Shown here piece after piece: positions 6,189 through 42,237 of a stretch of 64,000 nt of DNA (positions are counted from its first letter, which is position 1; each line of letters starts with the position of its first letter). A program made the translations under genes and the position numbers. Under the pieces are notes generated by a model. It saw only the letters and a program-made list of their open reading frames with translations. It did no database searches and was not told the origin of the DNA. Source of the stretch: Myxococcales bacterium (GTDB lineage Bacteria > Myxococcota > Myxococcia > Myxococcales > UBA5297); NCBI GenBank assembly GCA_050288705.1, contig JBNKEI010000169.1, positions 1,108 through 65,107 on the forward strand, in the 5' to 3' direction.

Positions 6189-7202
6189 TCATCTAGGAAT
6201 CGAGTGTAACTTTTTATCAAGTTCACCGAATTTAAGCATGAGGTGATAGAGACTTTCGGTCCAGCGAATGCTATCCTCCTGTCGATAATGTGTTTTGTCA
6301 TCTATTGGCTTTAGATCTTGTCCCACTACTAGCTTGGAACCGCGGTCCTTGCTTCCAACTATTTCTTTGCCACCAAGAATCCAATCATCGCCGTCTCCAG
6401 CCATTTGGAATACGTCGTTGCCGCCAAAGCCGCGGTTTTCTGCGCGATACTCTCTGCCGTCATGTTTTATATCGCTCGATTTTCCTGGGCCTTTGTCAAT
6501 ATCAGAAATAGTCGCGTGATCATTGCCACAAGTTATGTCGAGCTGCTTGGTTGTGGTCCAGCCATTTTTGTTGGCAGCCGTTGTTCTCACATCGATTCGC
6601 GTACCATCCGGCAATTTGAATACTGAATCTCTCTTGAAATCCCATGTACCTCCATCGCCCTCGGCCACATGGGGATCACCAGAGACGTTCGTGGTTTTCC
6701 CCTCGGGTGATACAATTGTCCAACCTTGATTGTTTTTTTTCGAAGGAATGATTTTGTATCCACCAGGAGTAGTGTACGAGCCATTGTCATTTTTGGTTAA
6801 TTTTGGTCTATGACTGTGATGATGATGATGATGATGCCCTCCTTCTATATCATCCACAGCACCTTCAACCTCAAAAGCATCTAGTGCGTCTTTCTGATCT
6901 AGATGGAAAAAATCTGGACCCTTTTCCGAATTTTCCACCAGATTAAAATAGGCTGGATTGTCAAGAAAAAACTTGCATGCATTTTTTAAAGCCAATGGCG
7001 CCCCAGGGTTATTGTAAGCAATATCGTGCAAATCGTTTTTGTCAATTTGTGCGCAGCTGCCTTTTGCTCCTGCAATCAATTTGAAATTGTTTTTTAATAT
7101 ACGAATAGCCTTTTTATAATCCATTTTTCCCCAAGGCAAAGATCCAGAATAAGGGAAAGCCCCAGAAGGGGAATGTCCTGGAGGCATAGGTAAAATTGAC
7201 AT
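6189..7202 (-). CDS. DUF1521 / MIIA (metal-inducible autocleavage, GDPH) domain protein; putative T3SS substrate
   Basis: Start ATG 7202 with TAGGAG RBS. Ser/Pro-rich N-terminus, His-run linker, then NVSGDPHVAEGDGGTWDFKRDSVFKLPDGTRIDVRT...QLDIT, matching the DUF1521 pattern. N-terminal domain is paralogous to 7647..8255. Confidence 0.75.
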   Translation of the reverse strand: MSILPMPPGHSPSGAFPYSGSLPWGKMDYKKAIRILKNNFKLIAGAKGSCAQIDKNDLHDIAYNNPGAPLALKNACKFFLDNPAYFNLVENSEKGPDFFHLDQKDALDAFEVEGAVDDIEGGHHHHHHHSHRPKLTKNDNGSYTTPGGYKIIPSKKNNQGWTIVSPEGKTTNVSGDPHVAEGDGGTWDFKRDSVFKLPDGTRIDVRTTAANKNGWTTTKQLDITCGNDHATISDIDKGPGKSSDIKHDGREYRAENRGFGGNDVFQMAGDGDDWILGGKEIVGSKDRGSKLVVGQDLKPIDDKTHYRQEDSIRWTESLYHLMLKFGELDKKLHSIPR

Positions 7203-7249
7203 GATATTTCTCCTAATTTGGTTATGGGTTAATTCTCGACAAGACATAT

Positions 7250-7646: not shown

Positions 7647-8255
7647 TCAGAATCCAAATATTTTACCAACGTTTTTAAGACCGTCGGCTAATTTATTGCC
7701 GATATCCATAGCAGCATTCGTGGCGTTCTTAACCCCATCGGCTAATTTATTGCCGACATTCATAGCAGCATTCGTGGCGTTCTTAACTCCATCGGCTAAT
7801 TTATTGCCGACATTCGTGGCGGTCTTCGTGGCGGTCTTCGTGGCGGTCTTCGCAAGGGCGTACACAGAATCTAGTTTACAGTGACCATGATATCCTCCCC
7901 ACATATCTTTCATGGCACTATTAATCTCAAAAACATCTAATGCATTTTTTTTGTCAAGCCCAAAAGGCATGTTCGCGGAATTTTCTACCAGATTAAAATA
8001 GGCTGGATTATCAAGAAAAAACTTGCATGCTCTTTTTAGATCCGATGGCGCTCCAGGGTTATTGTAAGCAATATCGCGCAAATCATTTTTGCCAATTTGT
8101 CTGCAGCCGCCTTTGGCTCCAGCAATCAATTTGAAATTATTTTTTAGAACACTAAGAGCTTGTTGATAATCCATTTTTTCCCAAGGTAAAGGCTGAGGAA
8201 AACCAAAATTCTGAGGTATAGAAGGGAAATGGCGCCCCATAGGTAGTTGTGACAT
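7647..8255 (-). CDS. Putative T3SS-secreted protein; paralog of the 6189 gene N-terminus with C-terminal amphipathic repeats
   Basis: Shares MDY..A..LKNNFKLIAGAKG...DL.DIAYNNPGAP..LK.ACKFFLDNPAYFNLVENS with the 6189 gene. Tail of ATKT repeats and about three NVGNKLADGVKNATNAAM-type repeats. Confidence 0.7.
   Translation of the reverse strand: MSQLPMGRHFPSIPQNFGFPQPLPWEKMDYQQALSVLKNNFKLIAGAKGGCRQIGKNDLRDIAYNNPGAPSDLKRACKFFLDNPAYFNLVENSANMPFGLDKKNALDVFEINSAMKDMWGGYHGHCKLDSVYALAKTATKTATKTATNVGNKLADGVKNATNAAMNVGNKLADGVKNATNAAMDIGNKLADGLKNVGKIFGF
7684..7851. repeat. Intragenic tandem repeats (54-bp unit about x3; 12-bp unit x3)
   Basis: Repeated TCGGCTAATTTATTGCCGA...ATAGCAGCATTCGTGGCGTTCTTAAC units and TTCGTGGCGGTC x3. 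Confidence 0.85.
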
Positions 8256-8984: not shown

Positions 8985-9542
8985 ATGCCTAGTCAACATG
9001 CAACATATCAAGAACCACCAGAAATTACCGAGCAACGAAAGCAAGTACTGCATGAACTCCAAAAGGCGGCCAAATCTCATTCAGGAATATTGCAAGAAGT
9101 ATTGCTAAAAATATATCAAGTAGTACAGAATACAACCCCTGACTCGAACCGCGATGCTCGATTAACTAAAGACACTCAACTGGCTATTCAGCAATATTTG
9201 AATGCTCGTAAATCAGGCAAGGTTTCTTCCGAGATCCCCCAGGCCATCCCTTTAGCCGTTGAATTTATACAAAACAATATAAAAGTGCTAGGAGAAGCAA
9301 CTCGTTTAGAAACAGAAGGGAAGCCCCTGGAAGTCAAAGAGTTCAAAGGAATAAAAACCTTTCTGCCGTCCTTGCGCACCATACACTTTGATAATGATGC
9401 ACTTGAATTGACACCACAGGGGTACCATCGCCAGGTTTTCTTAGGAGAATATTATGCCACCAATACAATCACTCAGAGCCCTCGTATCCGTACAAAAACT
9501 CCTGGATGGGTAAATCCAGCGCTAGGCCACATTATTGTTTAG
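8985..9542 (+). CDS. Hypothetical protein
   Basis: 185-aa ORF with TAGGAG RBS; no motif recognised. Confidence 0.65.
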   Translation: MPSQHATYQEPPEITEQRKQVLHELQKAAKSHSGILQEVLLKIYQVVQNTTPDSNRDARLTKDTQLAIQQYLNARKSGKVSSEIPQAIPLAVEFIQNNIKVLGEATRLETEGKPLEVKEFKGIKTFLPSLRTIHFDNDALELTPQGYHRQVFLGEYYATNTITQSPRIRTKTPGWVNPALGHIIV

Positions 9543-9871
9543 ATACATGCGCATTCCCCCTTGCACTTCTGCTCCAGTTTTTTGTGCTTCCAACTGCAAG
9601 AAAGAACAAAGACTATTTTGAATAGCTCAAGGACAAAAGACTTCAGAATACTCTGTGCGTTGCCAGCATTGCAGAAGAACAGTTTCTCCGAATCAGCTCA
9701 ATGATCACAGCCATTCAAAAACTCTTAGTGAATCAAGCACTAAACCACCCTGATGTTAAATGCAAGCGCATACTTGGATTTTGATCGAGAGTGCAAGTTG
9801 TTGTTGACCGATATCCAGTTCACTGCAAAAATTATAAATTGAATTTGGGCGATCCTAATAACGTAGGCCAA

Positions 9872-9968
9872 CTGGGTTCGGATGCGTTTGTTAATATTTC
9901 TTAGGAATGGTAGTTAGCTAAGAAAACAATTAGTAGCAAGTAAGTTTTTTTAGAGCGAGCTGGAATTT
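9872..9968 (+). pseudogene. Vestigial 3' end of a PEGA-domain gene
   Basis: CTGGGTTCGGATGCGTTTGTTAATATTTCTTAGGAATGGTAGTTAGCTAAGAAAACA... aligns by eye with 16228..16331 (CTGGTTCGGGGGCGTTTTTCTATGTTTCTTGGGATCGACAGCCAGCCAAGATAACA...); contains stops. Confidence 0.6.
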
Positions 9969-10001
9969 GGAACATGAGCTATAAAGAAAGGCTTATTCAC
10001 C

Positions 10002-12335
10002 ATGAAATCACCTGAGGCATCAGGGGGTATTTTGGCAGTGGCACTGCTAGGTATTGCGGCATGTTCGGATAATTTTCCCGGAAAATGCAATAGTAACGCC
10101 GGTTGCCAAGGGGAAAGTAAATGCCATGAGGGTTTGTGTGTGCTCATTCCTGGACAGACCAATGGACAGACCGATGAAATAACTAATTTGATTGCCGAGC
10201 CTGGTCCTCAGCGGACACTATTGCATTGGGACGCAGTTCCAGGAGCTTTGAGTTACAACGTCTATTGGAAGAATTCTAGTGGAGTTAGTAAAAGCGATAA
10301 GTACGAAATCAGTGAAACCAACGAGCTGGTACACAGCGAGCTTGAAAATTGGCAATCCTATTATTATGCGGTAGCAGCAGTGTTACCCACCGGGGAGACA
10401 TCGCTTTCCCAGGAGGCCTGGGCGCGACCTGCTCCTCTAATCCCTGATAAGACTGTAAACGCGATTGCCCAAGGAAGCGACGGTACCGTTTATATCGGTG
10501 GACAGTTCTCTAGAATTGGACTTGCTAGCGGAAGCATATTGGCATGGAATACTATTCGTAGTCAGCCCATTCCCTTTCCGCTGGTAACAGGTTTTGTTTC
10601 TGCGATCGCTCCTGATGGAACTGGAGGGTGGTATATTGGTGGAGAATTTTACCGGGTGGATGGCGTAAAGAAAAGCGGCTTAGCTCATATTCTTGCTGAC
10701 GGCACCCTAGACCAGAATTGGAAGTCTGGTGATAATTTTTTGGGCCATGTTAATGCATTAACAGTTAACGGAGAAACCATTTACGTAGGGGGCGAGTTCT
10801 CGCGCATCGGCGGTAAGGAAAGGAATAACCTTGCGGCTATCCATTCTGACGGCACCCTAGATCTAGATTGGAAGCCTGATGCCGATGGTAAGGTAAGCGC
10901 ACTAGCAGTAAGCGGAGAAACTATTTACGTAGGCGGCGAATTCTCGCACATCGGCGGAGAGGAAAGGAAGAGCCTTGCGGCTATACATTCCGATGGCAAC
11001 CTGGACCAGAAATGGAAACACGATGTTGAGGGTCTGGTCAATACATTGGCAGTAAGCAAAAGCGGAGAAATCATTTACATAGGGGGGAATTTTTCCAAAA
11101 TTGGCATTGATGAAAGGAAAAACCTTGCGGCTATCCATTCCGACGGCACCCTAGACCAGAATTGGAAGCCCTATTCTAATTCTGGGTCTAGTGTAGCTAC
11201 GTTGGCAGTAAGCGGAGAAATCATTTACGCAGGTGGTTATTTTTCCAAAATCAATGGAGAGCTAAGGAAAAACCTCGTGGCCATTCATTCCGATGGCCGC
11301 CTAGACCAGAATTGGAAGCCCGAAGCTAATAGTGGTGTAGTAGAGTTGATAGTAAGCGGAGAAACCGTTTACGTGGGGGGGGCTTTTTTCAAAATCAATG
11401 ATACACCACGGAGAAACTTGGCGGCAATAAAAGTCGACGGTACTCTGGACCAGAATTGGAGTCCCGAACCCAATGGTGTTGTGTCTGCGTTGGCAGTAAG
11501 TGGAGAGAATATCGTTGCAGGGGGCAAATTTGCCAGTATCGGCGGAGAATCAAGAAAGTACCTTGCCGCAATAAATGCCGACGGTTCCCTCGGCCAAGAC
11601 TGGAAGCCCGAGCCTAATGGTGTCGTGTCTGCGTTGGCAGTAAATGGCCAAACCGTTTACGTAGGTGGTGCTTTTTCCAGTATTGGGGAGGCTTCAAGAA
11701 AAAAATTTGCAGTAATAAAAGCCGATGACGGTACCCTAGACCCGAATTCTAATTGGGATCTCAGGCCCGATAATTCTATACTTGCCTTGGCAGTAGAGGG
11801 AAAAAGAATTTATGTGGGCGGTGAGTTTTCCACTATCGGCGGAGTGGCAAAAAAGTACCTTGCCTCAATAAATGCCAACGATGGCACCCTGGACTCGAAT
11901 TGGAATCCTAATCCCGAAGGAGTTGTCTCGGCATTGGCAATAAGCGGCGAAACCATTTATGTGGGTGGCGAATTTGAAAATATTAGCGGAGGGTCACACA
12001 AGCATCTCGCAGCAATAAAAGCCTCCGACGGCAGCCTGGACACGAATTGGAATCCTAACCCTAATGAAGCTGTCTCGGCATTGGCAGTAAATGGAGAAAC
12101 CGTATACGTAGCAGGCAATTTTACCAGCATTGGCGAAGGACAAGAGAAATATCTTGCGGCCATTCTTGCCAACGGTATCGGTACTCTTAACAAGAATTGG
12201 AATCGTCCGCCTGCTACCTACTCTGCCGTATCTGCATTGGCAACAAGTGGAAAAACCCTTTTCATAGGTGGCAGTTTTACCAGCATCGACTACCATTTCC
12301 CCCAAACCAACTTCACCAACTTGAGCTTACCCTGA
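10002..12335 (+). CDS. Lipoprotein: Cys-rich module, FN3 domain and delta-60/DUF5122-like beta-propeller repeats (copy 1)
   Basis: Lipobox IAAC; C-x5-C-x5-C-x4-C module; LHWDAVPGALSYNVYW...YYYAVAAV (FN3); about 11-12 repeats of V.ALAVSGETIYVGG.F..IGG..R.NLAAI..DG.LD.NW.P. Confidence 0.85.
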   Translation: MKSPEASGGILAVALLGIAACSDNFPGKCNSNAGCQGESKCHEGLCVLIPGQTNGQTDEITNLIAEPGPQRTLLHWDAVPGALSYNVYWKNSSGVSKSDKYEISETNELVHSELENWQSYYYAVAAVLPTGETSLSQEAWARPAPLIPDKTVNAIAQGSDGTVYIGGQFSRIGLASGSILAWNTIRSQPIPFPLVTGFVSAIAPDGTGGWYIGGEFYRVDGVKKSGLAHILADGTLDQNWKSGDNFLGHVNALTVNGETIYVGGEFSRIGGKERNNLAAIHSDGTLDLDWKPDADGKVSALAVSGETIYVGGEFSHIGGEERKSLAAIHSDGNLDQKWKHDVEGLVNTLAVSKSGEIIYIGGNFSKIGIDERKNLAAIHSDGTLDQNWKPYSNSGSSVATLAVSGEIIYAGGYFSKINGELRKNLVAIHSDGRLDQNWKPEANSGVVELIVSGETVYVGGAFFKINDTPRRNLAAIKVDGTLDQNWSPEPNGVVSALAVSGENIVAGGKFASIGGESRKYLAAINADGSLGQDWKPEPNGVVSALAVNGQTVYVGGAFSSIGEASRKKFAVIKADDGTLDPNSNWDLRPDNSILALAVEGKRIYVGGEFSTIGGVAKKYLASINANDGTLDSNWNPNPEGVVSALAISGETIYVGGEFENISGGSHKHLAAIKASDGSLDTNWNPNPNEAVSALAVNGETVYVAGNFTSIGEGQEKYLAAILANGIGTLNKNWNRPPATYSAVSALATSGKTLFIGGSFTSIDYHFPQTNFTNLSLP

Positions 12336-12350
12336 AAAAGATTTCTATAA

Positions 12351-12434
12351 GGTTTTTCATTATTTCTTGGAATCGGGTAGCCCTTTCAAGAAAAAAGTAT
12401 TGGCAAGCAAGGTTTTATTAAGCGTGGGAATTTG
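12351..12434 (+). pseudogene. Vestigial 3' end of a PEGA-domain gene
   Basis: Translates FFIISWNR... then, after a frameshift, ASKVLLSVG; compare FFYVSWDR...TSQVLFTVGGNF at the end of 14883..16331. Confidence 0.6.
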
Positions 12435-12467
12435 GAACGTGAGCTATAAAGAAAGGCTTAATTCACC

Positions 12468-14804
12468 ATGAAATCACCTGCGGCATCAGGGGGTATTTTG
12501 GCAGTGGCGCTGCTAAATATTGCGGCATGTTCGGTTAATTTTCCCGGAAGATGCAGTAGTAACGCCGATTGCCAAGGAGAAAGCGAATGCCGTGAGGGTT
12601 TGTGTGTGCACATTTCTGGACAAGCCAATGGGCAGACCAATGAAATAGCTAATTTGATTGCCGAGCCGGGTCCTCAGCGAACACTGTTGCGTTGGGACGC
12701 AGTTCCCGGAGCTTCGAGTTACAAAGTCTATTGGAAGAATTCCAGCGGAGTAAGTAAAAGCGATAAGCACGAAATCAGCGAAACCAACGAGCTGGTACAC
12801 AGCAAACTTGAAAATTGGCAACCCTATTATTATGCGGTAGCAGCAGTGTTACCCACCGGGGAGACCTCGCTTTCCCAGGAGGCTTGGGCGCGACCTGCGC
12901 CTCTCATACCTGATAGCCCTGTAAACGCAATAGCCCAAGGAAGCGACGGTACTGTTTATATAGGTGGAGCTTTTTCCCGAATTGGCCCTGTATGCGGAGG
13001 GGTAGTAGCCTGGGATACCGCCCGTAACCGCCAAAGCCCCTTTCCACTGGTAACAGGCTCTGTTTATGCGATCGCTCCCGATGGAACTGGAGGGTGGTAT
13101 ATTGGGGGAACGTTTCGCCAGGTGGATGGCATAAATAAAACTGGGTTAGCTCATATTCTTGCCAACGGCACCCTAGATCCAGTTTGGAACGTTAATGGTT
13201 TTTCGGGCCATATCGAAACATTGGCAGTAAGCGGAGAAACCATTTACGTCGGTGGCAACTTCTCGCTCGTCGGTGAAGAGCAAAGGAATAACCTTGCGGC
13301 TATCCATTCCGACGGCACCCTAGATCTCGATTGGAAGTCTTATGCCGATGGTCCAGTCCTTTCATTAGCAGTAAGCGAAAGTGGAAAAATCATTTACGTA
13401 GGGGGTTCTTTTTCTAAAATTGGCACTGATGATAGGAAAAACCTTGCGGCTATCCATTCCGACGGTATTCTAGACCAGAATTGGAAGCCCGATGCTGATG
13501 GTCAGGTCAATGCATTGGCATTGAGCGAAAGTGGAGAATTCATTTACGTAGGGGGGAGGTTTTCCAAAATTGGAACTGATGATAGGAAAAGCCTAGCGGC
13601 TATCCATTCCAGCGGCAGCCTAGATCAAGTTTGGAAACCCAAAGTTAAATCTGAGTCTAATGTAGTTACGTTGGCAGTGAGCGGAGAAATAATTTATGTA
13701 GGTGGTTATTTTTCCGAAATTGATGAGGAGAGAAGGTGGAACCTCGCGGCCATTCATTCCGATGGCAAACTAGATCGGAATTGGAAGCCCAAAGCTAATA
13801 ATGGTGTAATGAAGCTGGAAGTAAGCGGAGAAAATGTTTATGTGGGGGGTTCTTTTTCCTCAATCAATGAAAAACCACGGGGGGGCTTTGCGGTAATAAA
13901 AGCCAACGGTACTTTGGACCAGAATTGGAGGCCCGAGCCTGATGGACATATACACGCGTTGGCAGTAAGTGGAGAGAATATCGTTGCAGGAGGCGAATTT
14001 ACCAGTATCGGAGGGGAGCCGCGAAAGCACCTTGCCGCAATAAATGCCGACGGTACCCTGGACCAAGACTGGAAGCCCGAGCCCGATGACAATATATATG
14101 CGTTGGCAGTAAATGACCAAACCGTTTACCTAGGCGGCGCTTTTTCCAATATTGGTGAGGTTTCAAGAAAGAGATTTGCAGTAATAAAAGCCGATGACGG
14201 TACCCTAGACCCTAATTCGAATTGGTATCCCGAGCCCGATGACTCTGTACTTGCCTTGGCAGTAAAGGGAAAAAGTATTTATATGGGCGGTAAGTTTTCC
14301 ACTATAGGAGGAGCGGCAAAAAAGTACCTTGCCGCAATAAATGCCGACGATGGCACCCTAGACCCGAATTGGAATCCTAATCCCGAAGGAGTTGTCTCAG
14401 CATTGGCAATAAGCGGAGAAACTCTTTATGTGGGTGGCGAATTTGAGAATATTGGCGGAGGGTCAAACAAGCATCTCGCGGCAGTAAAAGCCGCCGACGG
14501 CAGCCTGGACCCGAACTGGAATCCTAGCCCTAATGAAGCTGTCTTGGCATTGGCAGTAAACGGAGAAACCGTATACGTAGGCGGCAATTTTACCAGCATC
14601 GGCGGAGAATCACAGAGATATATTGCGGCCATTCTTGCCAACGGTACCGGCACTGTGAACAAAAAATGGAATCGTCCGACTGCTATCTACTCTGCCGTAT
14701 CTGCATTGGCAGCAAGTAAAAAAACCCTTTTCATAGGTGGCAGTTTTACCAGCATCGACTACCATTTTCCCCAAGCCAGGTTTACCAACTTGAGCTTACC
14801 CTGA
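12468..14804 (+). CDS. Lipoprotein: Cys-rich module, FN3 domain and beta-propeller repeats (copy 2, tandem paralog)
   Basis: Colinear with 10002..12335, with near-identical termini and upstream sequence (GGAATTTGGAAC.TGAGCTATAAAGAAAGGCTTA.TTCACCATG). Confidence 0.85.
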   Translation: MKSPAASGGILAVALLNIAACSVNFPGRCSSNADCQGESECREGLCVHISGQANGQTNEIANLIAEPGPQRTLLRWDAVPGASSYKVYWKNSSGVSKSDKHEISETNELVHSKLENWQPYYYAVAAVLPTGETSLSQEAWARPAPLIPDSPVNAIAQGSDGTVYIGGAFSRIGPVCGGVVAWDTARNRQSPFPLVTGSVYAIAPDGTGGWYIGGTFRQVDGINKTGLAHILANGTLDPVWNVNGFSGHIETLAVSGETIYVGGNFSLVGEEQRNNLAAIHSDGTLDLDWKSYADGPVLSLAVSESGKIIYVGGSFSKIGTDDRKNLAAIHSDGILDQNWKPDADGQVNALALSESGEFIYVGGRFSKIGTDDRKSLAAIHSSGSLDQVWKPKVKSESNVVTLAVSGEIIYVGGYFSEIDEERRWNLAAIHSDGKLDRNWKPKANNGVMKLEVSGENVYVGGSFSSINEKPRGGFAVIKANGTLDQNWRPEPDGHIHALAVSGENIVAGGEFTSIGGEPRKHLAAINADGTLDQDWKPEPDDNIYALAVNDQTVYLGGAFSNIGEVSRKRFAVIKADDGTLDPNSNWYPEPDDSVLALAVKGKSIYMGGKFSTIGGAAKKYLAAINADDGTLDPNWNPNPEGVVSALAISGETLYVGGEFENIGGGSNKHLAAVKAADGSLDPNWNPSPNEAVLALAVNGETVYVGGNFTSIGGESQRYIAAILANGTGTVNKKWNRPTAIYSAVSALAASKKTLFIGGSFTSIDYHFPQARFTNLSLP

Positions 14805-14882
14805 AAAAGACTGGGTGCAAGTTACTCGGCCCATAACGATGGATGTCGTCGAAAAAAGCATAATGCACTGGGGAGTCAAAAA

Positions 14883-16331
14883 ATGAAGCGCTGGAAATAT
14901 AATTCTACCGGCTGGTTACTAACCAGCATAATCATTGCTTCAACGCCAGTTTACGCACAATCAACAGCAGTAGTAGCAGGTGGCTCTTGTCAACAAAACT
15001 CGCTCGCCGCAACCGTTAGCAAGTTTCGCGCTGCGCTCGCGCGCAAAAATGTAACCGTCGAGTCGCAGCAGTCTCTCATCAATAAACTTGGCGGCATTCC
15101 GTCAATGTCGATGGAGGAAATCAATCACCGTCTGGAGGCACGTCGCGAGGACCTTCTCAATATGGACTATCAAAAAGCAATCAATCCATTATTGGAAGAA
15201 ATCAAAGAACTAATGTTACAGCCTCCTTCGCAAAAGCGTTGCGACAGTGTTCGCGATGCTTATGTCAAATTAGCCTGGGCGTATTACAAATCGAAAGCAA
15301 ACGAAAAGGATTACCGCGCGGCAGTAGAGAGAATAGCTCGAATCGGTACTTTTAAACTCGATTTCAGATTATTTCCTCCCACGTTTCACCAATATGTTGA
15401 TAATACGCGAGAGGAACTGAAAAGGGGCGCCAATTCATCACTTAGCATACTCACAAATCCAGTAGGATTGATGGTACATATTGATGGATGTCCAGTCGGG
15501 CACTCTCCCCAAAGACTTCGCGTCCCCGAAGGTAAATACCAAGTAGATATCGAGTTTCCCAGTGGACGAGGTTTATTCCAAAAAGTTGTAGCAAAAGGCG
15601 ATACAACAGTCGAATTTAACAAAGGATTTGAAGGATCAATTTTTGCTGATAAAGGTCCCTGCGTTGCTTTCTCTAAAGACAATAAAGAGCGAATTAAGTC
15701 ACTGGCTCGGCTCGCTGGCTTGCTGAAGGTTCAATCGGTGGCAATGGTTCGGGAACACGAACCAGTAGAGGGTAAAAAATATTTAGCCGTCCAGTTGGTC
15801 GATAAAAATAAGAATTCGAGAGAGGCAGAAATAAACCTTTTAACCAATGGCGCCACCGATGATGAATTAGACGACAATTTGGAAAAGCTCGCTACGTTCA
15901 TAGCCACGGGAAAAGTCGAACCACCGGTTAAGTCTCTTCCTCTTCGTGCAGACAACCCGATAATAAACGTCTCCTCTGCGCCAAAGCCAAAAGCAAAATG
16001 GCAACGTACGGTTGCGTGGTCATTGGCTGGACTCGCGGCTGCATTAGCCGGAGCAGCAGTCTACGAACAGGTGCATATGAGAAATATTGCGAACGATGCG
16101 AGCCCGCGTCGTAATTCCGACGGGAGTTATAATCATGACGACTTAATGGCTTACCAGTTATCCCGCGACTTTAATACCGCGGACAAGCTGCGCACGGGAT
16201 TCATAATAGGAACGGCGCTAGCCGCGGCTGGTTCGGGGGCGTTTTTCTATGTTTCTTGGGATCGACAGCCAGCCAAGATAACAGAATCAGCAACTAGTCA
16301 GGTTTTATTTACCGTAGGTGGAAATTTTTGA
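14883..16331 (+). CDS. PEGA-domain protein with signal peptide, helical (TPR-like) region and C-terminal hydrophobic segments
   Basis: LSILTNPVGLMVHIDGCPVGHSPQRLRVPEGKYQVDIE (PEGA); hydrophobic VAWSLAGLAAALAGAAVY and GFIIGTALAAAGSGAFFY; terminal Phe. Confidence 0.75.
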   Translation: MKRWKYNSTGWLLTSIIIASTPVYAQSTAVVAGGSCQQNSLAATVSKFRAALARKNVTVESQQSLINKLGGIPSMSMEEINHRLEARREDLLNMDYQKAINPLLEEIKELMLQPPSQKRCDSVRDAYVKLAWAYYKSKANEKDYRAAVERIARIGTFKLDFRLFPPTFHQYVDNTREELKRGANSSLSILTNPVGLMVHIDGCPVGHSPQRLRVPEGKYQVDIEFPSGRGLFQKVVAKGDTTVEFNKGFEGSIFADKGPCVAFSKDNKERIKSLARLAGLLKVQSVAMVREHEPVEGKKYLAVQLVDKNKNSREAEINLLTNGATDDELDDNLEKLATFIATGKVEPPVKSLPLRADNPIINVSSAPKPKAKWQRTVAWSLAGLAAALAGAAVYEQVHMRNIANDASPRRNSDGSYNHDDLMAYQLSRDFNTADKLRTGFIIGTALAAAGSGAFFYVSWDRQPAKITESATSQVLFTVGGNF

Positions 16332-16370
16332 GTCAGGGCTAGTGAAACCCAAGGTAAGGTCTAGTTCACC

Positions 16371-17156
16371 ATGAAATCACGTGCGACGTCGTGGGGAGGT
16401 TTGGCAGCGGTGTTACTAAGTACTGCTACCTGTATTGATTTCCCCGGAAAATGCAATGATGACAAAGATTGTAAAAATGGAGTGTGCCGTCAAGAATTGT
16501 GTTATACAAGGCAGCCCAATGAAGATAATAATGGAAGCGAATGCGTACCCGAGACAGTGGACGAGCACTGTGAAAGCGTGGGAAAAGCTTGCGGCATAAA
16601 TTCCTGGACCGACAATTGCGGGCAAACACGAAATGAGATCTGTGGAGAATGTCCTAATTGCACAAAGTTTGACGAGGAGCGAAATCGGCCTGCGCTTACC
16701 AATTGGACCAATTGGCCGGCTATTCCCATTCCTCCGCCAAATGATGCTTATTCAGTCATCAATGACCAAGGAGATGTGCTCGATTCTCAGACCTGCCTCA
16801 TTTGGCAACGCTATGTACAGACAAATACTATAGCTCAGCCGCATACGGGTGGTCCGCAGTTTTTTACCTGGTACGAGGCAAAAGATCATTGTAAGGGAAA
16901 CTGGCGGTTGCCCTCCAAAGTTGAACTTGAATCGATTATTGACAACAGTCGAATTAATTTGGCGATTAACGACGTCTTTGGTCAGCCAGAAAATGGTTGT
17001 CCATCACGCGGCTGTTGGTTCTGGACTGCAACAGATTACGAGCACATCCCGGGCAGTGGTTATACTGACCCGGCGGCATGGTATGTCGACTTCTCTAGCG
17101 GTTACAGCAATGGAGACAACAAGGACTATACCGGCTTCGTCCGCTGTGTGCGCTAA
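16371..17156 (+). CDS. Lipoprotein with Cys-rich module and DUF1566 (Lcl C-terminal, C-type lectin fold) domain
   Basis: VLDSQTCLIWQR, FTWYEAKDHC, WRLPSKVELESI, WFWTAT, AWYVDF..G, FVRCVR. Leader homologous to the 10002 and 12468 genes. Confidence 0.85.
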   Translation: MKSRATSWGGLAAVLLSTATCIDFPGKCNDDKDCKNGVCRQELCYTRQPNEDNNGSECVPETVDEHCESVGKACGINSWTDNCGQTRNEICGECPNCTKFDEERNRPALTNWTNWPAIPIPPPNDAYSVINDQGDVLDSQTCLIWQRYVQTNTIAQPHTGGPQFFTWYEAKDHCKGNWRLPSKVELESIIDNSRINLAINDVFGQPENGCPSRGCWFWTATDYEHIPGSGYTDPAAWYVDFSSGYSNGDNKDYTGFVRCVR

Positions 17157-17176: not shown

Positions 17177-17749
17177 TTGGGAGCAAAAATGAAAAGCATT
17201 ATTTATTCACATGGTCCCTGTATTAGAAATTATGCTCACTTATTCAGCGTCGTCGGAGTAATCGCCATTTTTAGCGCGCCAGCGACCTATGCAAGCGCAC
17301 CCGTAGGCCGGTTCATAGTGACAGAACATGACGATCCCAATGACAACACAGTCTACGATAGCGTAACCAAATTGACTTGGCAGCAGAAAGTTCTCAACAG
17401 CGGCCGTAAATGGGCAGAAGCAGTTGATTACTGTGATGAGCAAAACACAAAAAAGCTTGGAGGATTTGATTCTAGGTGGCGACTACCAACTATTTCCGAA
17501 CTAAGGACTATTGTAGACACGGCCAATATCAAGGGATCAACCATAGATAACAAGCGACCAGCTATTGATCCAACCGCTTTTCCAAATGCTAGAGATTGCT
17601 GGTTCTGGAGTTCCACCCCTTATATGGACGGTAACTTCAAGCCGGATGGTACTGGGGGCTTTGCATGGCGTGTCCTCTTCTCCGACGGCTCCAGTCTTTT
17701 TGGCAAAGTTGACGACATCTACACTGCCGTCCGTTGCGTGCGCGACTAG
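17177..17749 (+). CDS. Secreted DUF1566 (Lcl C-terminal) domain protein
   Basis: TVYDSVTKLTWQQ, WAEAVDYC, WRLPTISELRTI, FWSST, AWRVLF..G, AVRCVR. Start may be ATG 17189. Confidence 0.85.
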   Translation: MGAKMKSIIYSHGPCIRNYAHLFSVVGVIAIFSAPATYASAPVGRFIVTEHDDPNDNTVYDSVTKLTWQQKVLNSGRKWAEAVDYCDEQNTKKLGGFDSRWRLPTISELRTIVDTANIKGSTIDNKRPAIDPTAFPNARDCWFWSSTPYMDGNFKPDGTGGFAWRVLFSDGSSLFGKVDDIYTAVRCVRD

Positions 17750-17900: not shown

Positions 17901-19658
17901 TTGGAGCTGTTTCCGGGCAAAAGATTTGAAAAATACGAAATAATTAAGCGGCTAGCCACGGGCGGAATGGCCGAAGTTTATCTTGCGCGCACGCTTGGCC
18001 ATGCCGGCTTTTCCAGGCCAATTGCTCTCAAACGAATCTTACCGGATTTTGCTCGCGAGCAAAGATTTCGCGAAATGTTTTTGCGTGAAGCCTCGGTAAC
18101 AGTCCACCTGGATCATCCAAATATTGTTCGCGTTCTCGATTTCATCGAGGAAGATGGCGAGTTAATTCTGGCCATGGAATACATTAATGGAACTAGTCTC
18201 AAAGAACTGCACAATGCCTCTCTTTCGCGAACAGCTATAGACAACTCGCCAGGCATCAGTCCCCTGCTGGCAGCAACTATAGGAGAACGTGTTGCGAAAG
18301 CGCTCGATCATGCCTGGCATGTTCCTGGTGATCACGGGCATCCATTACATATTGTACATCGGGATGTAAGCCCTCAAAATATACTTTTGTCATATGAGGG
18401 AGATGTAAAATTGGTTGATTTTGGCATTGCCAAACCAGCTAATGAAAATACCAGCATAGGGGGCATAAAAGGAAAGCTACAATATTTATCACCAGAGCAA
18501 GCCAAAAGCGAGGAACTCGACGAGTGTTCCGACATTTTTGCTCTGGGAATAGTGCTATATGAAGTAGCGTTAAATCTTTCTACCCCGCTTTTCGCAGCAG
18601 AGAATCAAGCGGGAGTGCTTTATGCTGTACTAAATCGAGAAATTATTCCGCCAGTATCGAAAAAGCCAGATTTTCCTCCGCGGCTCTCTTCGGTAATCAT
18701 GCAAGCGCTCGCCCGCAAGCGTAAGAACCGCTTTCAATCCGCCGAGGAGTTTGCGAGTGCGCTAAATCAATCAATACATCTGGAGACCACGAACCCTGCG
18801 GAATGCGACCTAGTAGCTTATATGCGTTCACTATATGGGGAGACGAAAAAATTTGAATTGGCGCATTTATTATCTAAACAAAAGGTTCACACCAAAAAAC
18901 CAGAAAAAATCGAGACATCTATTCATTATAGAGCAAAAAAAATGCTCAATAATTCTGTTCCGTTGGCGCCAATAGAGCAGTCTAAAACAATCGCCGATAT
19001 CTCAGTAAGCCTGCCTGGCACTATACTTCCTATTAATATTCCCATTGAGATCACCGAAACAGAGAAATCGGACAAAAGAAAGTTGCGAATCGGCGTTATC
19101 GCTGGTTTATTAGTCGCTGTACTATTGGGCGCGTTCATTGTCAAAAAAATTATGCAAAAAACAGATGATTTGCACTCGTCTACTACCGAGACATTGCGGT
19201 CTTCTGCCGCTGGCCAAAACAAGGTTGCCACTCCGTCGAACCACGTATCGCCGCCGCCTTCGGAACTCGATTCTGCGAATTCTACTAAAGTAAAAACAGA
19301 CGCCCAGGAAGCAATCTTGGCAACCAAAAAGGACCAGACAACGACTCAAGTCCAGCGGAAAAAACCGATTAATCCCCCGCCGCGTCGAAAAAAAAAGCAA
19401 TTGGCAATCAAGAAACCGGAAACAGGCACTCTGGTCATTAACCTAAGACCATACGGATGGGCAATCATTGGCATTGACGGAGAAACTCCTAAACTAAATG
19501 ATACGCCAGAAATTACTCGGAAGCTATCCGCTGGTCCTCACTATATTCGTATTGCTTCACCGAATGGAAAAGTAATTACATCAAAAAAAATAGAAATAAA
19601 ATCTGGAAAAAATACCGTTGTGAATATTGGGAACCTCTTAAGCAAAGAGCAGCATTGA
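17901..19658 (+). CDS. Hanks-type Ser/Thr protein kinase, single TM segment, C-terminal PEGA-like domain
   Basis: LATGGMAEVY, ALKRI, HRDVSPQNIL, DFGIAK, YLSPEQ; TM IGVIAGLLVAVLLGAFIV; GTLVINLRPYGWAIIGIDG. Confidence 0.9.
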   Translation: MELFPGKRFEKYEIIKRLATGGMAEVYLARTLGHAGFSRPIALKRILPDFAREQRFREMFLREASVTVHLDHPNIVRVLDFIEEDGELILAMEYINGTSLKELHNASLSRTAIDNSPGISPLLAATIGERVAKALDHAWHVPGDHGHPLHIVHRDVSPQNILLSYEGDVKLVDFGIAKPANENTSIGGIKGKLQYLSPEQAKSEELDECSDIFALGIVLYEVALNLSTPLFAAENQAGVLYAVLNREIIPPVSKKPDFPPRLSSVIMQALARKRKNRFQSAEEFASALNQSIHLETTNPAECDLVAYMRSLYGETKKFELAHLLSKQKVHTKKPEKIETSIHYRAKKMLNNSVPLAPIEQSKTIADISVSLPGTILPINIPIEITETEKSDKRKLRIGVIAGLLVAVLLGAFIVKKIMQKTDDLHSSTTETLRSSAAGQNKVATPSNHVSPPPSELDSANSTKVKTDAQEAILATKKDQTTTQVQRKKPINPPPRRKKKQLAIKKPETGTLVINLRPYGWAIIGIDGETPKLNDTPEITRKLSAGPHYIRIASPNGKVITSKKIEIKSGKNTVVNIGNLLSKEQH

Positions 19659-19977
19659 ACATATTTATAATTATCATTGGTTACATTTTATTATGCGCTA
19701 ATTGTATATTCGCAAGGCGGGGCCAAGACCTTCGGCATCCCCCGAAGAGCAGGCAAACTACGAGTGCTGAGACTTTACGGCGGGCACTGTTGGTTCATCA
19801 GACCAGACAAGCAAGAGTTGTACTTTTGGGCACAATCGCAGTATCCGGTTAAGTGAACAACTTTTCCGGATAATCGGGTTGCTTTGCGACTCACCTTCAC
19901 GCAAAATTTGTCCGCCAAGGAAGCATTCGAGCGGGTCTTGCATGATGCGAAACCTGCAAAAAGTGCAAGCTTATCGC

Positions 19978-20760
19978 ATGAAAGATTTTCTTTTCTCCAA
20001 AACCATTGCTCTCACCGGACCTTATGGAACCGGCAAAACCGAAATTGCCCTGGGGTTGGCTCTGCAAGCTGTACAGTCTATTCGGCCGGAAAGTAAAGGC
20101 TTTAACGAGGTGGTCTTAGGCGACTTAGACATATTGAAACCCTATTTTCGCTCGCGCGAGGCTCGCCATTTTCTCCAGCAAGCCAGAATCAAAGTGCTTT
20201 GTCCTCCAGATACTTGGAGCTACAGCGATCTTCCGGTTTTTGCTCCCGAACTGCGTAGATATTTGGCGGGAACTAATTCGCAAATAATTTTGGATGCGGC
20301 CGGAGACTCCGCTGGCGCCAAGGCTTTGGGCGCGCTGTCGGACATCCTTTCGACTAAGGATCACCAGTTGCTTTTGGTAATCAATCGTTACCGTCCATTT
20401 TGCAATTCCGCAGAGGAGCTAGTGGAACTAGGCAAGCGCATTACCGACGCTGCGCAAATGCGCATTACGGGAATTGTTTCTAATACCCATTTTGTCGAGC
20501 ATACTACTGCCGATGACGTGGAATGGGGCCTTGATCTTGCTCGCCGTGTGGCCTATCAACTGGAGGTGGGCGTACGTTTGCTGGCAGCTCCGGAAGAACT
20601 TCAGTCTACCTTGCAAGCTAGAGAAGATCTCCCGCCACAACTGTTCATTCGCCGACGAATGATACCCCAGTTTCTGGGCGGAGTGGCGCTTTCACCAGGC
20701 GTCGGTTCGTCAGATTCACAGGCTGGCGCCTTTGGAAGAGTTGAAAAGGAGCGTTATTGA
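19978..20760 (+). CDS. P-loop ATP-binding protein (MinD/ParA/CobQ-like) associated with vor operons
   Basis: TGPYGTGKTE Walker A and DLDILKPYFRSRE motif. ORF track starts at 19879; ATG 19978 preferred. Confidence 0.75.
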   Translation: MKDFLFSKTIALTGPYGTGKTEIALGLALQAVQSIRPESKGFNEVVLGDLDILKPYFRSREARHFLQQARIKVLCPPDTWSYSDLPVFAPELRRYLAGTNSQIILDAAGDSAGAKALGALSDILSTKDHQLLLVINRYRPFCNSAEELVELGKRITDAAQMRITGIVSNTHFVEHTTADDVEWGLDLARRVAYQLEVGVRLLAAPEELQSTLQAREDLPPQLFIRRRMIPQFLGGVALSPGVGSSDSQAGAFGRVEKERY

Positions 20761-31319: not shown

Positions 31320-32747
31320 CTATTTACTTTCAACATATCGTTCATACAGTTTCTTTATTTCCGTCCCATCAAGTATATTCGTATAAATACTAAACTCATC
31401 TATCGACCCGTTCCATCGATAATCTGACCAATACTGCCCAATATATATATTTCCCAAATCTCCCGGGTCGCCAAATTCTTTCTGGTAATGCTGAGTTTCT
31501 CCTTGTTTCTCACCATCGACGAAAAATTCTATTTGTTTTTCTTCATTATCAACAGTCAATACAAAAAAGTGCCACTCATTTGCAGGAAATTTGTAACCTG
31601 ATCCAATTATTTCTGTGCTCCCATTTTCTATAACTATATCCCATTCTCCACCCGCAGTTCTGATATGAAACAACTTATCTATCCTGAAATAGGCGCATGT
31701 TATATTTGCATTTCGGCTTTGCAACCAGGCAGAAATGGTATACTTCTGCGATTCAAGCATCAAATCATTTTCCACCAACACATAGTCAGTATCACCATTC
31801 AACGCTATCGCACTACCCACTTTACCCTTAACAAATACTGGATTCCCATTAGCAGTTCCATCAAGCCCATTTTGCACCTCATCATAGGTATTTTCAAAAC
31901 TATAGTGGGCTACCGGAACCGGTTCAACCAATTGCTCGGAAAACACCATCCGCCCCCAATTTTCGGGACCACCGAAGGTGGCGCAATCGCTAGACCAGCA
32001 GGTATATTCGTTCTCACCGTCATCATTTCTGTCGTTGAGACTCAAGTTAAAACCAAACACCTGGTCTTTGATTGGCACATCGATCTTCCATTTCGACCAT
32101 GGTATGGCCATCTCCACAACATACCCTAAATCGGATTTGCCATCGTTCAGCTCTCCATCCAACTTAACGTATGAGGAAAAATCGCTGTCCCAGGCGAAAT
32201 CCAGAGAGTCGCCATTACCTTGCAAATCTGCCTGCGTTCCCCTTACCGACACTAAGAACTGGTAGTCATCAATATTCATTTTGGCGCCACCATCAAGTTT
32301 GGTATCAAACAACAATCCCAGCGAGTCTTCTAACCACAATCGGTCGTCGCGGTATTGGTAAACAGCGTGGAGTGCCGAATCTTCAACTCGGCCGGCTACG
32401 TATAAGGCCTGGTCATCCCACATAAACTGATATGCGCCCTTAGTCCCGCGCTGATTGTCCAGAATGATCTTGCCCGCGCTTCCAAACTCACTGTTGTTCC
32501 CATCAACAACGGCAGCCTTCGTGGCCCTTAGCACCTGATAGGTCTTTGCAGATTCACATATGCCTTGTACGCATGTTTTGCCACTAGGGCAGTCAGCGTT
32601 TTTCTTACATCCCGAGATGCAAACTTCTTCCTTACAGTACGCACCCGATGGACAATCTGCATTTTTCTGGCAGCTAAAAGGAAACTCTTTCTTGCAAGCT
32701 GATAGCCAAGCCACCCCAGCCAAAGCGAGAAAAACGAATTTATTCAT
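31320..32747 (-). CDS. Lipoprotein: two Cys-rich modules, CBM9-like sugar-binding domain and LamG/ConA-like domain
   Basis: Start MNKFVFLALAGVAWLSAC at 32747; CQKNADCPSGAYC and CKKNADCPSGKTC; MWDDQALYVAGRVED, GYVVEMAIPW (CBM9-like); GSAIALNG, EWHFFVLT, WNGSIDEFSIY (LamG). Confidence 0.8.
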   Translation of the reverse strand: MNKFVFLALAGVAWLSACKKEFPFSCQKNADCPSGAYCKEEVCISGCKKNADCPSGKTCVQGICESAKTYQVLRATKAAVVDGNNSEFGSAGKIILDNQRGTKGAYQFMWDDQALYVAGRVEDSALHAVYQYRDDRLWLEDSLGLLFDTKLDGGAKMNIDDYQFLVSVRGTQADLQGNGDSLDFAWDSDFSSYVKLDGELNDGKSDLGYVVEMAIPWSKWKIDVPIKDQVFGFNLSLNDRNDDGENEYTCWSSDCATFGGPENWGRMVFSEQLVEPVPVAHYSFENTYDEVQNGLDGTANGNPVFVKGKVGSAIALNGDTDYVLVENDLMLESQKYTISAWLQSRNANITCAYFRIDKLFHIRTAGGEWDIVIENGSTEIIGSGYKFPANEWHFFVLTVDNEEKQIEFFVDGEKQGETQHYQKEFGDPGDLGNIYIGQYWSDYRWNGSIDEFSIYTNILDGTEIKKLYERYVESK

Positions 32748-33055
32748 AAATAGCCTCTTCATGAACAGCTCAAACTTCATCATGCCCGCTGCATTTTCAT
32801 TAATGAATTCAAAACTGACGCAGCAGGCACAGCCATGGTTAGCAAAAAAAACTTTAGATTGGCAAGAAAATAATAGTACAACACTGAGCGCAAGTTGTAT
32901 TTGGAACAACGCATATTAAAAATATTAATATTATTTTTAATTACACCGTAATATAATTTTCATTATGTTGATTCTTGCTGCAAGTAAGTGTAAGACTTTC
33001 AATAGCTCTAGCGCTTGGTATGCTCCAAGGTGGGATATGACAAACGGAGGAAAAA

Positions 33056-41900: not shown

Positions 41901-42237
41901 AAAAGTAATATTGAATGGACAAATTGCCCACACTGGTCAGCTCCCGGCGAGTTGGGATAAAAAATTCAGACGCCCACTCAAACCAGCCGCCAAACGATTG
42001 AAGGACGCCTGGGTTGACGTCTCGTTTTTGTATTACCACGAAAGCGTTTATTCCCCTCTGCATCACAAAATAGCAGTAATTGATGGACACACTTCGGTCA
42101 TTGGATCGTATAACTGGTATGAAGCCAGCCTAGTTTCTGACGAAGTAGTTTCAGTAATAAGGAACCGACAATTAGCCAAAACACTTTCCGATGAAATTCA
42201 TCTTATTGAAAAGTCCTATCGCTTGGAGAAAGAGTAG
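38998..42237 (+). CDS. Fic domain-phospholipase D (two HKD motifs) fusion protein
   Basis: Fic motif IHPFSDSNGRVGR (39946); HKD motifs MHTKIFIFDG...SSYN (41491) and LHHKIAVIDG...GSYNW (42061); 1079-aa continuous ORF with RBS. Confidence 0.85.
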   Translation: MPHRAGYFVLAYNWDHHCSDLAETIKTRFGHLYCELESLALPQRNSRAHLIAYLSNWQSLQERFQQHIHELDRRCQTIHELGQRGYGTNRDLLQALQILAKEQRAVTEPIFHQKFEHCIPRLPKKGSIPKEVVVARDVKTLVTILGSPTFNNTSEHDIISNGFGQYFQAMSKTPWVVNTSIFQKLFLKIGAASMTLMQGKVGLSSPRPARELKITANRNFMEMYRESFASLHLFSEIGLDFLKHIHWVLSKGIYADAGHFRTIDFPDRNGVTTEFNNLSREIGNLTHVLRETARSFHDLPKFIWDLARSYYMFIGIHPFSDSNGRVGRIFLNHMLLKKGIPPIGFHDKDEIFALPRYGGTMEDMHQYLLRRISLATEDYFRERTLMESAGRFDKDVYNISFDSGCHFQQIDDNPQHIEVHLPVYIAPEESPEAKLLINHGKIVLSNEELLPDFSLYCGLTDTERGDWKHTLGLIRPRSSHEISSDVPATKSFELRYAIDFDKEFSEHEYLCCSAVSPSNQQVFSNQGAYYSLRLEKRHFTGIHHSLAAERYAFPSYKWLNARRMLPVTPHGLAVCNPGGIGFSFMGGAEGMSLKVLLQLWRADGASEHYLCDAYRVHDFGGDWQQWQTHRLPLLPWDGPHGHVTYAVFSYLIHRSNQALVSQNCYKFATFAEFSSNSTDRTDFFDPCYKTENPYTLNQVDAQELQAAYDRVCNSQTLDMEVRFTRGNPGSPEHPVNEIHREIDRVIAKKKDDPQGRHWIHLALFDLDNYHIAEHLIYAKNQGVEVECLGDWAGMSALNRTDNIARIRKAGIPVLGIVRNTPGVPSEGIGSMHTKIFIFDGEVVHSSSYNLHFHLWGGNREEVMIFRSPEIALLHENIFQAIRGGIIQPLQIDPLASFNLYYSFGYTITKEGKLFRAQDAILTEIHNAQKSIEVCMFDIGFLVGTSLGDSFESDVVSALIHARNRGIRVKVILNGQIAHTGQLPASWDKKFRRPLKPAAKRLKDAWVDVSFLYYHESVYSPLHHKIAVIDGHTSVIGSYNWYEASLVSDEVVSVIRNRQLAKTLSDEIHLIEKSYRLEKE

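Follow-up and report, generated by a model that had tools for sequence, protein, structure and literature searches.

A lipoprotein array behind copies of a PEGA-gene end in a Myxococcales genome probably reflects old duplication and domain shuffling

RESULTS

Organisation of the locus

The window analysed here, 64,000 nucleotides from a metagenome-assembled Myxococcales genome of 4.7 Mb (212 contigs, with many paralogs lying on short ones), contains a run of six + strand genes (Table 1): A and B, each encoding a lipoprotein with a beta-propeller; an intact gene for a PEGA-domain membrane protein (the 'PEGA gene'); C and D, encoding proteins with an Lcl_C (DUF1566) domain; and a gene for a Ser/Thr protein kinase. 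Our subject is the DNA that A, B and C have in common—a leader, a four-cysteine ('4-Cys') module and, ahead of the start codon, sequence resembling the end of the PEGA gene—which an earlier note had proposed to be the constant part of a cassette array, with interchangeable ligand-binding 'passengers' placed behind it.

Scored against Pfam gathering cut-offs, the DUF5122 beta-propeller (PF17164; cut-off 27) reaches 159.8 bits in A and 145.5 bits in B; Lcl_C/DUF1566 (PF07603; cut-off 34.9) reaches 65.3 bits in C and 93.7 bits in D; and PEGA (PF08308; cut-off 20.8) reaches 36.4 bits in the product of the PEGA gene, the Pkinase match of the kinase also lying above its curated Pfam cut-off. The C-terminus of the kinase resembles PEGA at a sub-threshold 14.1 bits (E 0.044). 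FN3 is likewise sub-threshold: Pfam does not list it for A or B, and a paralog on contig C207 of the same genome matches it with an E-value of 0.0017. Of the passengers named in the earlier note, the propeller of A and B and the DUF1566 domain of C therefore stand, and the FN3 domain falls short of the threshold; we refer to the corresponding stretch as 'FN3-like'.

PEGA-gene end and leader form one copied block

Reading outwards from the start codon, TTCACCATGAAATCAC spans this position in all of A, B and C, with TTCACC and a short conserved Shine-Dalgarno (SD)-like stretch ahead of the ATG. Behind it, a basic N-terminus and a hydrophobic core lead, as read by eye, into lipobox-like ends (LLGIAAC, LLNIAAC and LLSTATC in A, B and C, respectively) and then into the pattern C-x4-6-(F)PG-x-C-x4-[DG]C-x4-5-C-x4-C; the common TTCACC start, signal peptide and Cys module that the earlier note described in the three genes are thus borne out.

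Upstream of A, nucleotides 9875-9968 align with the tail of the PEGA gene (16230-16326) at 69% identity over 97 nt (E 0.002 within the window; z = 11), and the sequence upstream of B aligns with the same tail at 70% over 80 nt (z = 9.3); in neither case is the score reached in any of 1000 shuffles. The translations of the two stretches, GSDAFVNIS* and FFIISWNR against GSGAFFYVSWDR, are interrupted by stops and frameshifts, so that decayed copies of the PEGA tail—hereafter 'relics'—do lie before 10002 and 12468 as had been claimed. Under gentler scoring, a single homology block takes in tail, spacer and leader (9875-10091 versus 16230-16457; 66.7% identity over 231 nt), with an E-value of 7e-9 against the entire 4.7-Mb genome; the similarity on which the proposal hung is therefore significant, both by this measure and by the two z-scores. 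Throughout the shared part, A and B are 66-74% identical to C, and the longest exact match is 16 nt.

B arose from A by tandem duplication: the stretch ~9886-12341 recurs at 12352-14810, giving a duplicated length of 2.47 kb with junctions at 9886 and 12341/12352; the two copies are collinear throughout, at 85% identity over 815 nt at the 5' end and at 65-95% per 100-nt window, and share exact runs of up to 48 nt. As B is a tandem copy, its relic is inherited rather than an independent case: the three PEGA-tail junctions of the earlier note all exist, but only two of them are independent.

Between A and B, dN/dS is 0.45, i.e. both genes are under purifying selection, with an overall dS of 0.30 that is unevenly spread (leader 0.09 over 50 codons; FN3-like stretch 0.29; propeller 0.48 and then 0.32; 3' end 0.15). 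The relics of A and B are 80% identical (98/123 positions), as are the four-fold degenerate sites of the two genes (80%, 242/302); drifting at the synonymous rate, the relic looks like neutral debris, rather than a maintained recombination or regulatory site. A promoter and terminator scan found nothing conserved within the relics, and its 18 promoter sites, against 11.1 +/- 3.7 in shuffled sequence, are not clearly enriched.

PEGA paralogs and the 4-Cys lipoprotein family

The genome holds eight full-length PEGA paralogs (31-65% identity), plus fragments. At four of the eight loci (the window and contigs C63, C53 and C113) a 4-Cys lipoprotein gene lies directly downstream on the same strand; at two (C42 and C105) such a gene is adjacent in another orientation; one (C78) has no adjoining 4-Cys lipoprotein gene; and at the remaining one (C127) the contig ends. 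A kinase is present at two loci, those of the window and C127. In C113, the gene with the PEGA-linked leader (L019:9957-10238) runs for only 93 aa to its stop, near the contig end, and may be truncated.

A genome search with a profile of tail plus leader matches only the copies at A, B, C and C63 and one fragment; the latter, on the minus strand of C63 (L013:6342-6404; nhmmer E 2e-6), is a piece of leader and 4-Cys module reading ATCAGELPGKCDRDPDCKGVDRCV, without a passenger, and sits just upstream of the C63 PEGA gene, between it and a gene for a GH115_C/beta-helix lipoprotein. A search with the module pattern returned 32 open reading frames (ORFs), and 26 lipoproteins with a clear 4-Cys module were retained as the family: C2, C19, C57, C87, C125, C144_24326 and C175, which have another Cys pattern, were left out before the leader tree was built; C12, C52, C53 and C205 were added by hand; and C12, C52 and C205 were then excluded for failing the module pattern. 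Further leader copies, for which the earlier note had suggested searching, thus exist in both forms—the C63 copy and fragment from the profile, and the 26 module lipoproteins from the pattern.

The passengers of the family are varied, comprising DUF5122, Lcl_C, a PQQ-type propeller with EGF, Big_5, a lamin-tail domain (LTD), a CarboxypepD_reg-like domain, and CBM9 with Laminin_G_3. A shared leader with an interchangeable passenger is a trait of the whole family, most members of which do not lie beside a PEGA gene. At the other PEGA loci, the repeated unit is the whole PEGA gene with its lipoprotein gene, not the tail. The evolutionary unit proposed in the earlier note, PEGA tail plus leader plus variable C-terminus, accordingly holds in so far as tail and leader were copied as one block in front of unrelated passengers, and fails elsewhere in the genome, where complete gene pairs are repeated. 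Judging by the fragments of both kinds that were left behind, the family evidently went through repeated rearrangement.

No Pfam or NCBIfam model matches the 4-Cys module above threshold, the sub-threshold matches being to the EB module, DUF7107 and Dickkopf_N only. Full-text literature searches, seen as the titles and abstracts of the matches listed, returned no description of the arrangement; the 4-Cys N-terminal module and its PEGA-linked subclass appear to constitute an undescribed family. A further member with two such modules lies elsewhere in the window, at 31320-32915, where the sub-threshold matches are again to DUF7107, EB and Dickkopf_N. As a separate observation, the pairing of a C-like with a following D-like Lcl_C gene recurs on five other contigs (C22, C39, C44, C52 and C12), there with no PEGA gene and with leaders that are either of the CK-type 4-Cys class or plain lipoboxes.

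Leaders and passengers have different histories

A tree built on 41 columns of the 26 leader modules unites A, B, C, C63 and C113 in a single clade (support 87/92), each member of which lies directly behind a PEGA gene or a relic; the approximately unbiased test does not reject a constraint that groups the leaders of A, B, C and C63 (p-AU 0.685). The passengers group differently. That of A is 62.7% identical to C120 and 45% to C207, compared with 31% to the propeller of the PEGA-linked C53, and the C120 and C207 genes carry the widespread CN/CK-type leader along with a second Cys module, which A and B do not possess. The passenger of C63 is sister to that of C187 (support 96/95*; 60% identity), which has a different leader. 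Since the leaders of PEGA-linked genes cluster and their passengers are nearest to genes with other leaders, leader and passenger must have recombined in the past.

The DNA of A locates this event: similarity to the C63 leader stops at 10144 and similarity to C120 and C207 begins at 10185-10189, which places the join within some 40 nt encoding the linker LIPGQTNGQTDEI.

Relatives and sequencing reads

Among related genomes, PEGA searches gave between 0 and 7 matches per genome, at no more than 33% identity over long alignments, together with one short match of 34% containing an internal stop. In one relative of the same family and of high G+C (G003, L005:2874-4344), a PEGA homolog of 28% identity is directly followed by a lipoprotein gene with AACSDPPIAYQCTTDSDCSAGNICWERWC; this is the only one of 11 relatives' loci examined to combine PEGA with a 4-Cys lipoprotein, and its occurrence indicates that the pairing is old. 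The G+C content is ~45% here versus 67-72% at the loci of same-family and same-order genomes. The best matches of a housekeeping protein, Asd, reach only 59% and come from mixed phyla; the probable myxobacterial label draws on the ESM Atlas taxa of the PEGA protein and on the high G+C of those loci. The PEGA alignment, searched against genome and metagenome contigs, retrieved no related locus. In a protein database search, the PEGA query retrieved only the genome's own paralogs (three matches), and the C query retrieved C itself and two others; apart from paralogs of this genome, the database yielded one JGI fragment (P0002), cut at its N-terminus and 48% identical to C.

Reads were examined as short Logan contigs from four public runs (X1-X4), X1 being the probable source sample. 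Contigs from X1 cover 9500-10386, 12269-12752 and 14738-16488 with no differences from the assembly, and a 151-nt contig from X3, which belongs to another study, covers the junction between relic and leader of B (12415-12565), also with no differences; such coverage speaks against an assembly artefact and says little about variation. Four small joints within the repetitive propeller, with sides of 21-38 nt and mostly at low depth, were considered as variant junctions and discounted as artefacts of paralogs or k-mers; at 9543 (X2 and X3), a loose end that had looked like an alternative junction is by eye a diverged version of that intergenic sequence. Separately, contigs from X1 and X2 match the FN3-like region of B at 12684-12765 with unlike sequence on both sides (depth 17 in X1), which means that the samples contain additional FN3/propeller paralogs, or strain variants, that the assembly lacks.

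The PEGA protein and the leader as a possible sorting signal

In our model of the PEGA protein (mean predicted local distance difference test score, pLDDT, 75.1), a signal peptide and a helical bundle are followed by the PEGA sandwich, a small alpha/beta domain and a pair of long helices at the C-terminus. Foldseek returned no match in the PDB at E <= 0.001 for the complete model, and at the level of single domains gave only hints—of a transthyretin-like/PEGA fold and of a TolB-N-like alpha/beta domain. The protein scores 0.97 against three ESM Atlas clusters (479-490 aa), which are commonest in Myxococcota. A complex prediction for its periplasmic part with mature C, run without controls, scored 0.00 and speaks neither for nor against binding.

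The residue directly after the lipobox Cys ('+2') is Lys in none of the five leaders of the PEGA-linked clade, where Ser, Ile or Ala follows the lipid-modified Cys, versus 11 of the 21 others; one study of Myxococcus xanthus gives +2 Lys for 8 of 12 inner-membrane lipoproteins (PMC3222651). By this residue, the split of the 26 leaders suggests two sorting classes, and acquisition of a PEGA-type leader may have changed the location of the propeller.

Remainder of the window

Beyond these genes, the window carries housekeeping and envelope genes. Two neighbours on the minus strand, 6189-7247 and 7647-8255, are alike over their N-terminal ~110 aa and then diverge, one having a seven-His run and DUF1521 (E 7.9e-10) and the other TATK and NVGNKLADG repeats; at 38998-42237 (+) lies a gene for a 1079-aa protein with a Fic/DOC domain and two PLD-like domains.

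Table 1. Coordinates of the array, the adjoining genes and a further module lipoprotein, in positions of the window
Feature	Position	Strand	Description
Relic 1	9872..10001	+	Decayed PEGA-gene 3' end (C-terminus with the final transmembrane helix) with spacer, before gene A
Gene A	10002..12335	+	777 aa; leader and 4-Cys module to ~10144, junction zone 10145-10185, FN3-like stretch, DUF5122 beta-propeller
Relic 2	12352..12467	+	Second PEGA-tail relic, before gene B; 80% identical to the relic before A
Gene B	12468..14804	+	778 aa; tandem duplicate of A (76% aa and 85% nt identity)
PEGA gene	14883..16331	+	Intact; 482-aa PEGA-domain membrane protein; its final ~100 bp (16230-16331) represent the type from which the relics derive
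Gene C	16371..17156	+	261 aa; leader class as in A, 4-Cys module, Cys-rich linker, Lcl_C (DUF1566) domain
Gene D	17177..17749	+	190 aa; Lcl_C protein with a signal peptide unlike that of C
Ser/Thr protein kinase	17901..19658	+	585 aa; transmembrane segment, weak PEGA-like C-terminus
Module lipoprotein	31320..32915	-	Leader class CK.., two tandem 4-Cys modules, then CBM9 and Laminin_G_3

DISCUSSION

Old duplication and shuffling as the probable explanation

We consider it probable that the array arose long ago, as genes of a large lipoprotein family were duplicated and their domains shuffled, and that it is not a working switch. The locus is one of eight paralogous loci arranged around a PEGA-domain membrane protein, whose gene is usually adjoined by that of a secreted lipoprotein—presumptively a mature N-terminal 4-Cys module followed by a ligand-binding passenger. 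A block reaching from the last ~100-130 bp of the PEGA gene through spacer and leader to the 4-Cys module was duplicated; in A, this block is joined between 10145 and 10185 to an FN3-like/propeller passenger, the nearest relatives of which are in C120 and C207; and the resulting 2.47-kb unit was then duplicated in tandem to yield B. From the ~30% divergence of the block copy, and from the dS of 0.30 between A and B, these events are likely to be old, with ordinary illegitimate or unequal recombination as their presumed cause. The PEGA-tail relics would be neutral debris, and A, B and C three independently expressed, functional proteins that bind ligands at the surface or in the periplasm. The PEGA-linked leaders probably stay together because copying takes in the entire neighbourhood at once, and the leader may also set the location of its protein or the partner that it meets. 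We infer that no present-day switching mechanism is involved.

Several observations weigh against this account. Gene order and passengers are known from one genome, without a close relative or a second strain, and the functions of the proteins are read from domain names only. The leader tree has just the 41 columns, its key branch is unstarred and its bootstrap unsettled, and the leader of C53, though PEGA-linked, falls outside the PEGA-linked clade. Placing the passengers of C and C63 together is rejected only marginally (p-AU 0.045), C being on a long branch. The unevenness of dS between A and B, lastly, makes later recombination or gene conversion between these genes possible, at both ends.

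Alternative explanations

The earlier note had seen in the array an active system, in which recombination within the shared PEGA-tail/leader block exchanges the passenger linked to the intact PEGA/kinase operon, making a surface receptor variable. Three passengers are indeed preceded by a shared block in direct orientation, leaders and passengers have recombined in the past, a leader relic exists at a second locus (C63), and the low dS of the A/B leader hints at exchange between A and B. Exchange of the RecA type, however, requires identical tracts longer than the exact runs of at most 16 nt that A and B share with C over a part only 66-74% identical. Moreover, A, B and C are each complete: every one has a start, an SD-like site and a signal peptide of its own, and there is no 5'-truncated orphan among them. 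A and B precede the PEGA gene in direct orientation instead of following it, so that a single crossover with the leader of C would delete the PEGA gene and re-couple nothing; and the relic drifts at a neutral rate. No recombinase or transposase domain was found among the 44 window ORFs of at least 110 aa (E up to 0.01 and 1e-5), the sole recombinase-related match being a weak, sub-threshold one to an IstB-type ATPase at 19879-20760, and the four runs, in the form of short contigs only, gave no convincing alternative junction. The claim of re-coupling is thus not supported, and we regard such a system as very unlikely. Less probable still, to the point where we give it almost no weight, is that the tandem copies A and B and their relics arose in the assembly by mis-joining of strains or paralogs: the division of a metagenome-assembled genome into 212 contigs, with many paralogs on short ones, would favour such an error, as would the paralog-derived loose ends and small joints in the reads, but a separate Logan assembly of X1 spans three stretches unchanged—X1, as the probable source sample, not being independent data—and the X3 contig from another study spans 12415-12565 unchanged.

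Two further explanations concern what holds the block together. The relic might be kept for a function: if the end of the PEGA gene contained the promoter or 5' untranslated region of the lipoprotein gene, only copies carrying the relic would work; the block does always take in ~130 nt before the start codon, and the SD-like stretch and TTCACC ahead of the ATG are conserved. We think this unlikely, as relics of A and B are no more alike than their four-fold sites and contain indels, and as a scan covering the consensus sigma-70 type only placed no site inside 9872-10001 or 12352-12467, the nearest ending at 9832. Rather more doubtful is that selection, and not the copying of DNA blocks, keeps this leader class with PEGA genes, the 4-Cys module or its sorting signal being needed together with the PEGA protein and kinase. 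In favour of such co-adaptation are the recurrence of the pairing at 4 of 8 PEGA loci and at 1 of 11 loci in relatives, the way in which the leader clade tracks PEGA linkage, and the distribution of +2 Lys, absent from all five PEGA-linked leaders, present in 11 of 21 others and a mark of the M. xanthus inner-membrane lipoproteins cited above. Against it, the non-coding relic shows physical DNA copying, for which selection on the protein offers no explanation, C53 combines PEGA linkage with another leader, and contact between PEGA protein and lipoprotein has neither experimental nor modelling support.

Comparison with known systems

The DUF1566/Lcl_C lipoprotein families of Leptospira exemplify the expansion of paralogs by segmental or tandem duplication together with domain shuffling. 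With modular-lipoprotein expansion of this ordinary kind the array shares an N-terminal leader ahead of differing binding domains at the C-terminus, copies in tandem, and remnants of adjacent genes at the borders of duplications. It differs in that the copied block begins inside the preceding PEGA gene, in that the leader class tracks linkage to a PEGA membrane protein and Ser/Thr kinase, and in that the 4-Cys module is above no Pfam or NCBIfam threshold.

The orphan modules of polymorphic toxins (Rhs, CdiA), to which the earlier note likened the array, are 5'-truncated, lie downstream of a full gene, share a near-identical recombination tract with it and are accompanied by immunity genes. Common to both is a short shared stretch before alternative C-terminal domains, arranged serially on one strand. 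The analogy nonetheless breaks down: A, B and C have their own ATG and leader, so that no module is truncated; A and B lie upstream; identity is 66-74%, with 16 nt as the longest exact match; and the passengers are a DUF5122 propeller and Lcl_C in place of toxin domains, with no small gene that might confer immunity following A or B. In the vsa and vlp systems of Mycoplasma, one expressed leader serves silent, leaderless genes through inverted recombination sites and a site-specific recombinase. There too, alternative passenger genes have one lipoprotein leader in common, but here each gene has its own leader, all are in direct orientation on the + strand, and the window scan found no recombinase.

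Diversity-generating retroelements (DGRs) often target C-type-lectin/DUF1566 domains (PMC4159848, PMC5758913, PMC11661182), and C and D do carry an Lcl_C/DUF1566 domain. DGR diversification of C and D was nevertheless rejected: blastn of the last ~250 nt of each against the whole genome matches only the genes themselves, leaving no template repeat, and the five matches to reverse transcriptases (RVT_1) are all on other contigs, with none in the window. As to the PEGA protein, its Atlas score of 0.97 allies it with uncharacterised Myxococcota proteins of ~480 aa, the difference being that here eight paralogs occur in one 4.7-Mb genome. The arrangement, in sum, fails each feature tested of polymorphic-toxin orphan arrays, of expression-site lipoproteins and of DGR targets, and fits ordinary duplication and shuffling.

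Implications

No new mechanism of variation is revealed by this locus. It does offer a clean and datable case of the way in which bacterial surface-protein families gain architectures, in which the copied block crosses a gene border and leaves a recognisable relic; a block bearing such a relic shows that lipoprotein leader and binding domain were joined by rearrangement of DNA. It also flags a genome-wide 4-Cys N-terminal module that appears undescribed.

Each PEGA locus would then amount to an envelope module, built from a PEGA membrane protein, at least one binding lipoprotein and, at two loci, a kinase. More speculatively, and in our view improbably, PEGA proteins, kinases and PEGA-linked lipoproteins could together form a modular receptor family, with the leader/4-Cys module acting as an adaptor that plugs propeller or C-type-lectin-like sensors into one signalling chassis, new sensors being recruited through the copying of 'PEGA end plus leader'. 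What the genome does hold is a recurring PEGA/lipoprotein/kinase neighbourhood, in a poorly sampled lineage of myxobacterial type, that is a candidate for a role in envelope signalling.

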